Assembly: GCF_003334385.1 (NCBI RefSeq)
Contig: NZ_QOWN01000009.1
DNA: 64,000 bases
DNA from: Escherichia coli
Lineage (GTDB): Bacteria; Pseudomonadota; Gammaproteobacteria; Enterobacterales; Enterobacteriaceae
Reading direction: 5' to 3' (one strand)
Shown one piece after another: positions 8,982 to 13,698 of this stretch (position 1 is the first letter of the stretch; every line of letters begins with the position of its first letter). The translations under genes were made by a program, and so were the position numbers. The notes under the pieces were generated by a model, which was not told the origin of the DNA, did not search any database, and saw only the letters and a program-made list of their open reading frames with translations.

Positions 8982-9542
8982 ATGAGCAAATCATTACAAA
9001 AACCCACCATTCTGAATGTTGAAACTGTAGCCCGTTCCCGACTGTTTACCGTCGAGAGCGTGGATCTGGAGTTCAGCAATGGCGTGCGGCGTGTTTATGA
9101 ACGAATGCGTCCAACCAACCGGGAAGCAGTGATGATTGTGCCGATTGTGGACGATCACCTGATCCTGATCCGCGAATACGCAGTGGGAACTGAATCCTAC
9201 GAATTAGGTTTTTCGAAAGGATTAATTGATCCGGGTGAAAGCGTCTACGAAGCCGCTAACCGCGAGCTAAAAGAAGAGGTTGGATTTGGAGCGAACGATC
9301 TGACTTTTTTGAAGAAGCTCAGCATGGCACCGTCTTACTTTTCCAGCAAAATGAATATCGTGGTAGCGCAAGATCTCTACCCGGAATCACTGGAAGGCGA
9401 TGAGCCAGAGCCGCTACCACAGGTGCGCTGGCCGCTGGCGCATATGATGGATTTGCTGGAAGACCCTGACTTCAATGAAGCGCGCAATGTCAGTGCGCTG
9501 TTCCTCGTGCGCGAATGGTTGAAAGGGCAGGGGCGAGTGTAA
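8982..9542 (+). CDS. nudE: ADP-sugar/ADP-compound Nudix hydrolase NudE
   Basis: 186-aa ORF with Nudix box GLIDPGESVYEAANRELKEEVGF. Confidence 0.95.
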   Translation: MSKSLQKPTILNVETVARSRLFTVESVDLEFSNGVRRVYERMRPTNREAVMIVPIVDDHLILIREYAVGTESYELGFSKGLIDPGESVYEAANRELKEEVGFGANDLTFLKKLSMAPSYFSSKMNIVVAQDLYPESLEGDEPEPLPQVRWPLAHMMDLLEDPDFNEARNVSALFLVREWLKGQGRV

Positions 9543-9682: not shown

Positions 9683-9705
9683 AAAAGGCGCCGAAGCGCC
9701 TTTTT
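9683..9705. terminator. bidirectional rho-independent terminator (nudE / mrcA)
   Basis: AAAA-GGCGC-cgaa-GCGCC-TTTTT, symmetric A/T tracts on both sides. Confidence 0.8.
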
Positions 9706-9707
9706 AA

Positions 9708-12260
9708 TCAGAACAATTCCTGTGCCTCGCCATTATCGATAATGGTCGTTCCCACCTCGTGCACTGCCTGTTGTGTCGGCTGCGTACCTTCGATGAAATA
9801 CTCTTCGCGGCTGTTGCCACCATTAGCTAACTGCCCGGTGCTGCGATCGATATTCACCGTCACAATACCCGGTGGCGGCGTCAGCGGCTGCTCCGGCACA
9901 CCTTCAAGAACGGCTTTCATATAAGCGTCCCATGCAGGCTGGGCACTCTTGGCACCGCCTTCGTAACCTGAGATCTGATCTTTAATCGCTCCGGAAGCCG
10001 TTGTATGACCGAGATTACGACGGTGATCATCAAAGCCAATCCAGACCGAGGTCACAACGCCCGGACCGTAACCCGAGAACCACGCATCTTTCGAACTGTT
10101 AGTGGTCCCGGTTTTCCCGCCGATATCGCGACGCTGCAAATCACGACCTGCACGCCAGCCAGTACCCTGCCAGCCTGGCTCACCAAAGATATTGGTGTTC
10201 AAAGCACTCTTAATCAGGAATGCCAGCGGAGTGTTGATGACGTGCGGTGCGTACTCCTGCGCGCCAGTCTTCGCCACTAACGCCTGATTTGCCTGCTCCA
10301 GCTGCGGCATTGGTACAGAAACATTCTGCTGCTCGCGGGAGATAGCGACATCTTCAACATCGTTATTTTCCAGCACGTTCGATTTCTGCGTATCACCGTA
10401 AATCACCGGAATATCGCATTCCGGGCAGGCTACTTTCGGTTTCGCTTCGAAAATCACGCCGCCCTGATCGTTTTCAATTTTGCTGATAAACCACGGGTCC
10501 ACCAGGAAGCCGCCGTTCGCCATGACCGCGTAGCCGCGCGCCACCTGCATTGGGGTGAAGGACGCTGAACCCAGCGCCAGCGATTCGGTGTGGACAATGT
10601 TTTGTGCCGGGAAGCCGAAGCGTTGCAGATATTCTGCAGCGTAGTCGACGCCCATCGCCCGCATTGCGCGTACCATCACCACGTTTTTCGACTGACCCAG
10701 CCCCTGACGTAAGCGAATTGGACCAGCATACTGCGGTGGTGAGTTCTTCGGCTGCCAGTCAGAACCGGCACTTGCATCCCAGCGAGAAATTGGCACATCG
10801 TTCAACATACTTGCCAGCGTCAGACCTTTATCCATCGCCGCGGTGTAGAGGAACGGTTTGATGTTGGAACCCACCTGACGCAGTGCCTGGGTGGCGCGGT
10901 TAAACTTGCTCTGATTGAAATCAAAGCCACCGACCAGCGCCATAACGGCACCGTTTTGCGGATTGATCGACACCAGCGCCGAGTTCACTTCCGGCACTTG
11001 TGCCAGCCACCATGCATCGCCAACCTGACGAACCCAGATTTGCTGACCCGTTTGCAGAACATCGGTCACTTTACGCGGCGTCGGTCCTTGCTGAGTATCC
11101 GAACGGTAAGGACGCGCCCAGCGAACGCCTTCCATACTCAATGCGACGGTCGACCCGTCCGCCAGCATCGCCGTCGCTTGCTGAGGATTGGCGCTGGTGA
11201 CTGCGGCAGGCAGCAGCGGACCATAGGTTGGCAGCGCCTTCAGCGTATCGGTAATCTTGTTGTTATCCCACGCCGACTCGCCCACTTTCCACAGCACATT
11301 TGCCGGGCCGCGATAGCCGTGGCGCATGTCGTAGTCCAGCACGTTATTACGTACCGCCTGCTGCGCGGCCTGCTGCACTTTGCGGGTGATGGTGGTGTAA
11401 ATGCGATAACCGTCTTCATAGGCACTTTCGCCATAACGGTTATACATCTCCTGGCGCACCATTTCGCTCAGGTACGGCGCAGAGAAAGCAATCTCCGGCG
11501 CGTGATAGTTAGCGTTAATCGCCTCAGTGCGTGTCTGATCGAACTGTTGTTGGGTGATATACCCTTCATCCAGCATCCGCGACAGCACGACGTTACGCCG
11601 CGCGACGGCACGATCCATCGAGTAGAGCGGGTTGAAGGTGGAAGGCGCTTTCGGCAGCCCGGCTATCACCGCCATTTCGTTCAGCGTCAGTTGGTCGACC
11701 GTTTTTCCGAAATAGACTTGTGCCGCAGCACCGACACCATAGGCGCGGTAACCAAGGTAAATCTTGTTCAGATAAAGCTCGAGGATCTCGTCTTTCGTCA
11801 GCAGCTGTTCAATGCGAATCGCGAGGAAGACTTCCTTAATCTTACGCATCAGCGTGCGTTCTGGACTGAGGAAGAAGTTTCTCGCCAGCTGCTGGGTAAT
11901 GGTACTTGCCCCTTGTGACGCGTGACCGGAGAACAGCGCCACGCTTGCTGCACGGAAGATCCCCACCGGGTCAACGCCGTGATGCTCGTAGAAGCGGCTG
12001 TCTTCTGTCGCGATAAAGGCTTTCACCATCTCCGGTGGGATTTGATCCAACGTAACCGGAATACGACGTTTCTCACCGTATTGAGCAATCAGCTCGCCAT
12101 CGGCGCTGTAAATCTGCATCGGAATTTGCAGGCGAACATCTTTTAATGTCGCCACATCCGGCAGTTGTGGCTCGATGTAGCGGTATAGGCCATAAATCGA
12201 GCCTGCTCCCAGCAGAATGCAACAGACTGCAAGGATCAAAAAATACTTTACGAACTTCAC
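9708..12260 (-). CDS. mrcA: penicillin-binding protein 1A (bifunctional transglycosylase/transpeptidase)
   Basis: 858-aa ORF; 850-aa product if initiated at the GTG at 12260 (VKFVKYFLILAVCC...); glycosyltransferase and SxxK transpeptidase (SNIKP) motifs present. Confidence 0.95.
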   Translation of the reverse strand: MKFVKYFLILAVCCILLGAGSIYGLYRYIEPQLPDVATLKDVRLQIPMQIYSADGELIAQYGEKRRIPVTLDQIPPEMVKAFIATEDSRFYEHHGVDPVGIFRAASVALFSGHASQGASTITQQLARNFFLSPERTLMRKIKEVFLAIRIEQLLTKDEILELYLNKIYLGYRAYGVGAAAQVYFGKTVDQLTLNEMAVIAGLPKAPSTFNPLYSMDRAVARRNVVLSRMLDEGYITQQQFDQTRTEAINANYHAPEIAFSAPYLSEMVRQEMYNRYGESAYEDGYRIYTTITRKVQQAAQQAVRNNVLDYDMRHGYRGPANVLWKVGESAWDNNKITDTLKALPTYGPLLPAAVTSANPQQATAMLADGSTVALSMEGVRWARPYRSDTQQGPTPRKVTDVLQTGQQIWVRQVGDAWWLAQVPEVNSALVSINPQNGAVMALVGGFDFNQSKFNRATQALRQVGSNIKPFLYTAAMDKGLTLASMLNDVPISRWDASAGSDWQPKNSPPQYAGPIRLRQGLGQSKNVVMVRAMRAMGVDYAAEYLQRFGFPAQNIVHTESLALGSASFTPMQVARGYAVMANGGFLVDPWFISKIENDQGGVIFEAKPKVACPECDIPVIYGDTQKSNVLENNDVEDVAISREQQNVSVPMPQLEQANQALVAKTGAQEYAPHVINTPLAFLIKSALNTNIFGEPGWQGTGWRAGRDLQRRDIGGKTGTTNSSKDAWFSGYGPGVVTSVWIGFDDHRRNLGHTTASGAIKDQISGYEGGAKSAQPAWDAYMKAVLEGVPEQPLTPPPGIVTVNIDRSTGQLANGGNSREEYFIEGTQPTQQAVHEVGTTIIDNGEAQELF

Positions 12261-12379
12261 TGGAAATTTCCCATTTAGTTTCATTTGGGCAGTTTATAAA
12301 CAAACGCGCGGTAGTATAAAGGCAAGCCAGACGCATTGATATACCCGTCAGAGTGACGGGTGATAAGGAGATCATCACA

Positions 12380-13159
12380 ATGGCATTTAAGATCTGGCAA
12401 ATTGGTTTGCATTTACAACAGCAAGAAGCGGTAGCGGTTGCGATCGTGCGGGGCGCAAAAGAATGCTTTTTGCAACGCTGGTGGCGGTTGCCGCTGGAGA
12501 ACGACATTATCAAAGATGGGCGGATTGTTGATGCGCAGCAGCTGGCTAAAACGTTGTTACCGTGGAGTCGCGAACTGCCGCAGCGTCATCACATTATGTT
12601 GGCGTTTCCCGCCAGTCGCACATTACAGCGGTCATTTCCGCGCCCGTCGATGTCCCTTGGTGAGCGGGAGCAAACGGCCTGGCTGTCAGGGACGATGGCC
12701 CGCGAGCTGGATATGGATCCGGACTCCCTGCGCTTCGATTACAGCGAAGACTCACTCAGTCCCGCCTATAACGTGACTGCCGCGCAAAGCAAAGAGCTGG
12801 CAACGCTGCTTACTCTGGCAGAAAGGTTGCGTGTTCATGTGAGCGCGATCACCCCGGATGCCAGTGCATTACAGCGATTCCTGCCTTTTTTACCTTCTCA
12901 TCAGCAATGTCTGGCCTGGCGTGATAACGAACAGTGGCTGTGGGCGACGCGCTATAGCTGGGGGCGCAAACTGGCGGTGGGGATGACTAGCGCGAAGGAG
13001 CTGGCGGCAGCGTTATCCGTTGATCCCGAAAGCGTCGCGATATGTGGCGAAGGCGGATTTGATCCCTGGGAGGCCGTTTCTGTTCGTCAGCCGCCGCTAC
13101 CGCCGCCAGGTGGAGACTTTGCCATCGCGCTGGGGCTGGCGCTTGGGAAGGCGTACTGA
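12380..13159 (+). CDS. hofM: PilM-like type IV pilus/DNA-uptake assembly protein HofM
   Basis: 259 aa from MAFKIWQIGLHLQQQ; ATG at 12380 with AAGGAG 8 nt upstream; TGATG stop/start overlap with hofN. Confidence 0.9.
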   Translation: MAFKIWQIGLHLQQQEAVAVAIVRGAKECFLQRWWRLPLENDIIKDGRIVDAQQLAKTLLPWSRELPQRHHIMLAFPASRTLQRSFPRPSMSLGEREQTAWLSGTMARELDMDPDSLRFDYSEDSLSPAYNVTAAQSKELATLLTLAERLRVHVSAITPDASALQRFLPFLPSHQQCLAWRDNEQWLWATRYSWGRKLAVGMTSAKELAAALSVDPESVAICGEGGFDPWEAVSVRQPPLPPPGGDFAIALGLALGKAY

Positions 13160-13698
13160 TGAACCCGCCAATTAATTTTTTGCCCTGGCGACAGCAACGC
13201 CGGACCGCTTTTCTGCGTTTCTGGTTGCTGATGTTCGTTGCGCCTCTGCTGCTGGCCGTCGGGATAACGCTAATACTGCGTCTGACAGGCAGCGCCGAAG
13301 CGCGCATAGACGCAGTTTTGCTTCAGGCGGAACAACAACTCGCCCGAAGCTTACAGATAACGAAGCCACGTTTGCTGGAGCAACAGCAGTTACGCGAACA
13401 GCGTTCGCAACGGCAGCGCCAGCGACAATTTACCCGCGACTGGCAATCTGCGCTGGAAGCACTGGCGGCGCTTTTACCCGAGCACGCCTGGCTGACAACG
13501 ATAAGCTGGCAGCAGGGAACGCTGGAGATCAAGGGGCTGACAACAAGCATTACCGCGTTAAACGCACTAGAAACGTCACTCCGCCAGGATGCATCTTTTC
13601 ATCTCAATCAGCGGGGAGCCACGCAGCAGGATGCGCAGGGACGCTGGCAATTTGAGTATCAGTTAACAAGGAAGGTTAGCGATGAACATGTTCTTTGA
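13159..13698 (+). CDS. hofN: PilN-like protein HofN
   Basis: 179-aa ORF, single N-terminal TM segment; translationally coupled to hofM and hofO. Confidence 0.9.
   Translation: MNPPINFLPWRQQRRTAFLRFWLLMFVAPLLLAVGITLILRLTGSAEARIDAVLLQAEQQLARSLQITKPRLLEQQQLREQRSQRQRQRQFTRDWQSALEALAALLPEHAWLTTISWQQGTLEIKGLTTSITALNALETSLRQDASFHLNQRGATQQDAQGRWQFEYQLTRKVSDEHVL

Follow-up and report, generated by a model that had tools for sequence, protein, structure and literature searches.

The perfect inverted repeat beside the hofM ribosome-binding site (RBS) of Escherichia coli is best read, at a probability of roughly 40%, as a structural stem-loop, confined to certain lineages and of modest effect at most, in the leader of the hofMNOPQ mRNA. 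The repeat sits within the 119-bp spacer between the divergent genes mrcA (GTG start at 12260, minus strand; K-12 coordinate 3522871) and hofM (ATG at 12380, plus strand; the annotated K-12 start, 3522751) within the 64,000-nucleotide stretch of DNA analyzed here (the window). An earlier note on this DNA had read the palindrome as CCCGTCA-GAG-TGACGGG at 12344–12360. That reading is exact, and perfect pairing extends by one more base pair to give 8-bp arms (ACCCGTCA-gag-TGACGGGT, 12343–12361, plus strand) and a further U·G pair possible outside them (12342/12362). Only 3 nt separate its 3′ arm from the hofM Shine–Dalgarno (SD) sequence TAAGGAG (12364–12370, plus strand), which is placed by the annotated K-12 start and by GATAAGGAGATC, kept in most loci.

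Every one of the 5426 complete E. coli genomes carried the stretch, with mrcA and hofM annotated, and 5043 of 5427 E. coli records (93%) were identical over the 60 nt surrounding the palindrome. The element is single copy: no second copy was found in the 64-kb window, and it occupies one place per E. coli genome. Perfect palindromes with 8-bp arms and a 3-nt loop occurred twice in the window, compared to about 1.2 expected from mononucleotide shuffles, so window-wide the hofM palindrome is unremarkable. When any loop of 0–10 nt was allowed, 58 perfect 8-bp palindromes (nested ones included) were observed versus about 11 expected. Within one given 119-bp spacer the chance expectation for a palindrome like that of hofM is about 0.02, and its occurrence in this particular spacer is therefore unlikely.

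As plus-strand RNA, the repeat folded at −12.8 kcal/mol (z = −4.8), and 0/200 shuffles folded as well, bearing out the claim that the hofM leader would contain a stable RNA hairpin. The minus-strand RNA was predicted to fold at −12.3 kcal/mol, also far below its shuffles, and the single-stranded DNA at −8.5 kcal/mol. Leaders modelled with four different 5′ ends formed the identical local hairpin every time (>95% paired), as predicted for an autonomous stem-loop, and left the hofM SD mostly unpaired (0.60–0.73).

To place the element in an evolutionary context, we assembled 80 Enterobacterales loci picked by the MrcA N-terminus. hofM was divergent from mrcA in all 80, and the spacer length was almost constant. 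The spacer consists of three parts: a near-invariant core, a most-variable 23-nt block and the conserved GATAAGGAGATCG. The palindrome sits in the 23-nt block, the fastest-evolving part of an otherwise ultra-conserved spacer. Because the length of this block is fixed, the leaders align gaplessly and a single pairing register can be tested. That register was kept without gaps in Escherichia, Citrobacter, Salmonella, Enterobacter, Lelliottia, Pseudocitrobacter and Kluyvera-like loci. The hairpin was weak or absent in Cedecea and Rahnella, and likewise in Klebsiella, Raoultella, Kosakonia, Phytobacter, Leclercia, Buttiauxella, Yersinia, Serratia and Pantoea; the last nine genera retain hofM, its SD and the upstream block.

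Across the 35 distinct leaders, 67.6% of cells were paired, compared to 62.6% in column shuffles (0/500) and 23–57% when the partner was slid. The covariation score was 0.174 versus 0.128 (1/500), with double-sided changes in six pairs, the 35 leaders not being independent of one another. Pair 21–27 was C-G in 12, U-A in 9 and U·G in 5 of the 35 leaders, and pair 16–32 was C-G in 11, G-C in 2 and G·U in 3. Numbered within the genera that keep the register, pair 8–14 occurred as C-G, U·G and U-A, pair 3–19 as C-G and G-C, and pair 9–13 as A-U and G-C. RNAalifold did not find a consensus helix in the 35-leader set. When restricted to 24 leaders of the hairpin-bearing clades, it returned a helix of 6 bp, with covariation contributing +0.06, essentially nothing. 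The shuffle and binomial figures overstate the support because the sequences are phylogenetically non-independent. Conservation of the arms is also partly a matter of sequence rather than pairing, since Phytobacter and Kosakonia keep the left arm (GCCGTCA) without the right arm, and plain mismatches were present in three haplotypes (L006, L014 and L039). Structural conservation is real yet shallow in these alignments, and shared descent could explain much of it. The conservation test suggested in the earlier note thus gave partial support: the Escherichia–Citrobacter–Salmonella and Enterobacter-like clades preserve the register, and a few of their changes are compensatory or produce G·U pairs.

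The substitutions within the stem are strand asymmetric. Among the non-Watson–Crick cells at the six core pairs of 26 distinct haplotypes, 16 were G·U and 4 were A·C when read on the plus strand, the cells again not being independent. The G·U states were found in E. albertii (A to G), Salmonella arizonae, two Citrobacter, the E. soli group, Pseudocitrobacter and a natural E. coli variant (C to T), and S. arizonae and the two Citrobacter trace a path from C-G through U·G to U-A. Each plus-strand G·U would be a C·A mismatch in minus-strand RNA; a DNA dyad bound by a protein would not be expected to show such asymmetry. Mainly because of this G·U:A·C asymmetry, a plus-strand hairpin in the hofM RNA is preferred over a DNA operator or a hairpin in the mrcA direction. 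Taken together, the folding and the alignments show a hairpin that exists, folds stably and keeps its register in some clades, with strand-asymmetric substitutions.

The position of the hairpin within the transcript can be estimated from published work on the Sxy regulon. Transcription of yrfD (= hofM) is barely detected in LB, is induced 16-fold by Sxy and absolutely requires CRP and cAMP (Cameron and Redfield, PMC1635313), in agreement with the earlier note's description of hof as normally silent: the operon is poorly transcribed unless Sxy is induced (PMC1635313). In an electrophoretic mobility shift assay, CRP shifted a fragment whose primers map to 12105–12230 of the window, wholly within mrcA (PMC1635313), and the Fig. 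4 legend of that paper gives two CRP-S sites, the first at −246 and the other <200 bp from the start codon. A consensus scan yielded a distal CRP-S candidate, TGCAT-N6-TTGCA at 12112–12133, that matches the '−246' site of that legend and lies within the span of the assay primers, and a proximal candidate at 12193–12214, whose position as the second site is suggested by its location inside both the shifted fragment and a conserved synonymous block. We infer that the Sxy-dependent hofM start lies near 12245–12290 and that the palindrome begins ~85–100 nt into the leader. As the CRP-S sites lie within the mrcA coding region, the palindrome is most likely internal to a leader of ~100–120 nt, and the suggestion that it forms the 5′ end of the hof transcript gives way to a hairpin probably ~85–100 nt from that end. 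With an arm–SD gap of only 3 nt, no hofM mRNA can have a usable SD and lack the 3′ arm.

Upstream of the palindrome, a block of ~150 bp (12195–12343) is under non-coding constraint, and the palindrome begins at its hofM-side edge. The block comprises mrcA codons 1–22, synonymous sites included, and the intergenic core. Third-codon positions in codons 1–22 (12195–12260) were 0.9–1.0 conserved across 81 Enterobacterales, compared to ~0.5 from codon 24 on, a pattern expected from an overlapping promoter. The intergenic core, TTGGGCAGTTTATAAACAAMCGCGCGGTAGTATAAAGGCAAGCC...CATTGATA, hardly differs between E. coli and Yersinia, Serratia or Pantoea, and the block persists while HofM identity falls to 26%. 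Judged from conservation, promoter and leader signals of the divergent mrcA and hofM probably overlap within it. A hofM-direction transcript beginning inside mrcA would run antisense to the mrcA 5′ region. The predicted leader fold also pairs the invariant GGCAAGCCAG (12321–12331) with hofM codons 8–12, UUGGUUUGC (12393–12410, the conserved WQIGL region), and this long-range helix would enclose the entire translation initiation region.

A second predicted helix surrounds the SD itself. In E. coli, GGUGAU (12359–12364) pairs with AUCAUC (12371–12376) to give a mini-helix (12359–12376, plus strand; −5.0 kcal/mol alone) that holds the SD core AAGGAG (12365–12370) in a hexaloop. Its counterparts are CGAU/AUCG in Enterobacter and UCGAC/GUCGA in Yersinia. 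In the 35 leaders 92% of its cells were paired, at least three pairs could form in 65 of 78 loci including Yersinia, and the pair between columns 33 and 46 (CG in 22, UA in 10, UG in 2 and GC in 1) was never broken. The mini-helix is conserved more widely than the palindrome. Its GGA-containing loop, closed by a short stem, is reminiscent of a CsrA-type site. Both this SD-loop helix and the 12195–12343 block are more noteworthy than the palindrome.

The basal three pairs of the mini-helix use G12359–U12361, which also supply the basal three pairs of the palindrome, so that formation of one helix in E. coli and Citrobacter would be at the expense of the other; the much stronger palindrome would leave only three A/U-rich pairs around the SD. 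Over 41 leaders, predicted SD accessibility was 0.64 with the native 19-nt blocks and 0.52 with composition-matched shuffles, although the effect was nil for the E. coli SD (0.60 versus 0.65) and reversed in most Citrobacter. In silico arm-disruption and compensatory mutants confirmed that the hairpin is autonomous, and the predicted shift in SD accessibility depended on the arbitrary mutant sequence chosen. Since the palindrome helix and the SD helix use separate bases in Enterobacter, 'anti-sequestration' cannot be a general feature. A role of the palindrome as an RBS insulator would be mechanistically reasonable and draws weak support from the block-shuffle predictions. The palindrome had been proposed as a plausible control point of the silent operon, which is not supported: the hairpin is missing from many genera that have hofM and the remainder of its leader, and no consistent effect on predicted SD accessibility was obtained. 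A bolder version, in which the palindrome and the SD-loop helix form a two-hairpin switch, possibly a domesticated ERIC end, that sets translation of the Sxy-induced hofMNOPQ mRNA, would be a long shot. If true, it would be a post-transcriptional checkpoint that contributes to the apparent silence of the E. coli DNA-uptake machinery, with an RNA-binding protein perhaps reading the GGA-containing SD loop.

Comparison with known classes of element places the palindrome nearest in kind to a generic RBS-adjacent leader stem-loop. An Rfam scan of 11500–13500 with E values up to 10 assigned it to no curated RNA family, and the sub-threshold matches elsewhere in that interval, asponA and ceN28, were both at chance level. 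The asponA ('anti ponA RNA') match at 12106–12131 (plus strand) scored 14.7 bits against a gathering score of 113 and is almost certainly noise. Like terminators and attenuators, the palindrome has a G/C-rich stem and a short loop; unlike them, it stands at the start of an operon rather than the end and is not followed by a U tract on either strand (the bases after the stem are GAUAAGG on the plus strand and AUAUCAA on the minus strand). An intrinsic terminator was accordingly rejected, with 0 terminator-like sites in 12000–12700. Elsewhere in the window, a perfect bidirectional terminator-like palindrome, AAAAGGCGCCGAAGCGCCTTTT (9683–9704), was noted just past the mrcA stop (mrcA ends at 9708), between the convergent mrcA and a plus-strand open reading frame (ORF) at 8982–9542. 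CRP-S sites share with the palindrome the same operon and a dyad-symmetric DNA element, but they have TGCGA-N6-TCGCA within 22 bp, and the published ones lie 150–250 bp 5′ of the start codon. When the palindrome was scanned with the CRP-S/CRP-N consensus, TGCGA (or TGTGA)-N6-TCGCA (or TCACA), the best overlapping 16-mers had 3–4 mismatches and were off the dyad center, and the half-site spacing of the palindrome is 3, not 6. REP/BIME elements are likewise intergenic, G/C rich and found in E. coli; the palindrome differs in being single copy and in lying between divergent starts rather than behind genes, and REP-like repeats were not detected. Three alternative coding starts were also dismissed: an upstream in-frame hofM GTG at 12353 that begins inside the palindrome (268-residue ORF) and a minus-strand ORF at 12281–12412, both lacking an SD and not conserved (the GTG in other genera), and an upstream in-frame mrcA ATG at 12284 (858-residue ORF), not conserved in other genera. 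RBS-adjacent 5′ untranslated region stem-loops (ompA-type 5′ hairpins and standby or insulator hairpins) insulate the RBS or stabilize the mRNA; like them, the palindrome is short, rich in G/C and able to fold autonomously just 5′ of an SD that is predicted to be largely unpaired. It differs from them in that it is probably not 5′-terminal, is limited to some genera and shows weak covariation.

The origin of the palindrome was considered separately. Its left part, TATACCCGTCA (12340–12350, plus strand), is identical to the left terminus of ERIC/IRU (11/11 match). The element could be a mini-remnant of this miniature inverted-repeat transposable element, inserted at the TA of TTGATA and left with 11 nt of the left end and a degenerate right end (GGGT-ATA) after loss of its interior; we regard this as unlikely. 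It would concern origin only and would be compatible with a functional or a functionless element. ERIC elements end in TA, carry a 7-bp terminal inverted repeat and duplicate their target (PMC2229807). The two ends of the supposed remnant pair like ERIC termini, and the palindrome is flanked by TA...TA (TGATA...TGATA). Canonical E. coli ERIC starts TATACTCGTCAT, and the copies in loci L046 and L069 start TATACCCGTCAT. ERIC-family elements occupy exactly this TA in L067, L070 (Pantoea) and L069 (three tandem copies), and L076 carries an internally deleted ERIC that consists only of the 11-mer TATACCCGTCA and ~30 nt of the right end. In the 600 kb of loci, TATACCCGTCA otherwise occurred only at an ERIC end or by chance in mrcA. 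In a test against the termini TATAC(C/T)C...G(G/A)GTATA, the left end matched at 11/11 positions and the right end read GGGTGATA, with one extra G. A full ERIC/IRU was rejected, as 26 nt are present versus a body of ~127 nt and the core (the ERIC1R/ERIC2 region, with its conserved central inverted repeat) is absent.

Several observations speak against the remnant. Almost all loci have a variable block of 23 nt, even the outgroups, where its sequence is T-rich and unrelated, so an ERIC remnant would need to have returned to the original length. A graded series from TATGTCATTTTCATC through TATAGCGTCATCC and TATAGCCGTCA to TATACCCGTCA fits substitution in situ, the right arm TGAC is unlike ERIC, and ERIC was found at this site in no E. 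coli genome. In short, the palindrome shares with ERIC/IRU/RU-1 the left 11 nt, the TA flanks, pairing termini and a site that is occupied in other genera; it differs in being as long as the orthologous non-ERIC sequence and in having a right arm that is not ERIC-like. The ERICs of L067, L069, L070 and L076 lie ~83 nt upstream of the mrcA start on the minus strand of the locus. Their positions suggest that the interval from the conserved block to the hofM SD is a hotspot for insertion.

What the hairpin does, if anything, has to be weighed against three other explanations. That it is a functionless by-product of chance, of a templated (template-switch) mutation or of a decayed ERIC remnant, persisting by descent only, is quite possible and nearly as likely as a structural leader hairpin. 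Such palindromes are not rarer than chance across the window, this one sits in the fastest-evolving 23 nt and is missing from many genera, the covariation term from RNAalifold is near zero, three haplotypes have plain mismatches, the predicted effect on the RBS is inconsistent and the hof operon is barely expressed. Yet the register is common to at least two clades whose HofM is only ~45–65% identical to that of E. coli, two or three pairs show double-sided changes, the 16:4 excess of G·U over A·C is unexpected under neutrality and the surrounding 60 nt are identical in 93% of E. coli records.

The earlier note had also proposed a dyad operator. In this reading, a dimeric regulator bound to CCGTCA-N3-TGACGG would control hofM as a leader roadblock, or mrcA from upstream of or within its promoter spacer. 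We consider this highly improbable. The perfect dyad does lie in a divergent regulatory spacer, its axis is fixed by the gapless alignment, the core CCGT...ACGG is best conserved and, on the minus strand, the 17 nt of 12344–12360 exactly fill the spacer from TTATCA to TATATC. However, TATATC lacks the invariant final T and is not called by the promoter scan, and the dyad matches neither CRP-S nor CRP-N. No regulator of hof other than CRP and Sxy was found in the literature searched. The dyad is lost in many genera that retain both genes, and its arms drift. Symmetric double changes and an asymmetry of G·T over A·C would be unexpected for protein–DNA recognition, and the non-Watson–Crick states are strand asymmetric as for RNA. 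Reading the other strand, the repeat could be a 5′-terminal stabilizing stem-loop of an mrcA transcript that starts at ~12364 from a promoter-like TTGCCA-18-(TG)GATGAT inside the hofM start, and here too the odds are slim. TTGCCA-18-GATGAT (12400–12371) was the only σ70-like site found in the scan of 12000–12700, and the equally stable minus-strand hairpin would begin 3–4 nt from the 5′ end. Known 5′ stabilizers such as ompA-type 5′ hairpins start a few nucleotides from the 5′ end. Against this, the promoter-like site is at chance level (0.8 expected in shuffles), its −10 segment differs in Salmonella and Enterobacter, the wobble states become C·A mismatches on the minus strand, and an mrcA promoter would fit better in the strongly conserved block closer to that gene.

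Under the preferred reading of a structural hofM leader hairpin, CRP–cAMP and Sxy would start transcription upstream, in or beside the first mrcA codons, and the 19-nt element would be transcribed ~85–100 nt into the leader and fold on itself 3 nt before the SD. The most likely effect would be local: the hairpin would lock a G/C-rich stretch that could otherwise pair elsewhere and, in E. coli and Citrobacter, would withdraw G12359–U12361 from the weak SD-closing helix. The RBS would thereby stay unpaired and be shielded from the long upstream leader, whose sequence is constrained, and the hairpin may also slow 5′-to-3′ decay. We infer the start position, the effect on translation or stability, and upkeep by selection rather than descent.

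The palindrome is an ordinary feature, because only the closer relatives keep the hairpin and its covariation is weak. Though unannotated, it is an ordinary leader hairpin with nothing to surprise a specialist. The useful outcome is a negative one: the palindrome is not a terminator or a CRP site and is probably neither an operator nor the 5′ end of the transcript, and the analysis points instead to the more constrained 150-bp mrcA/hofM block. The reasons for the poor natural DNA uptake of E. coli are still debated, and if the hairpin tunes hofM translation or stability, control of the CRP/Sxy competence regulon would gain a minor post-transcriptional level.
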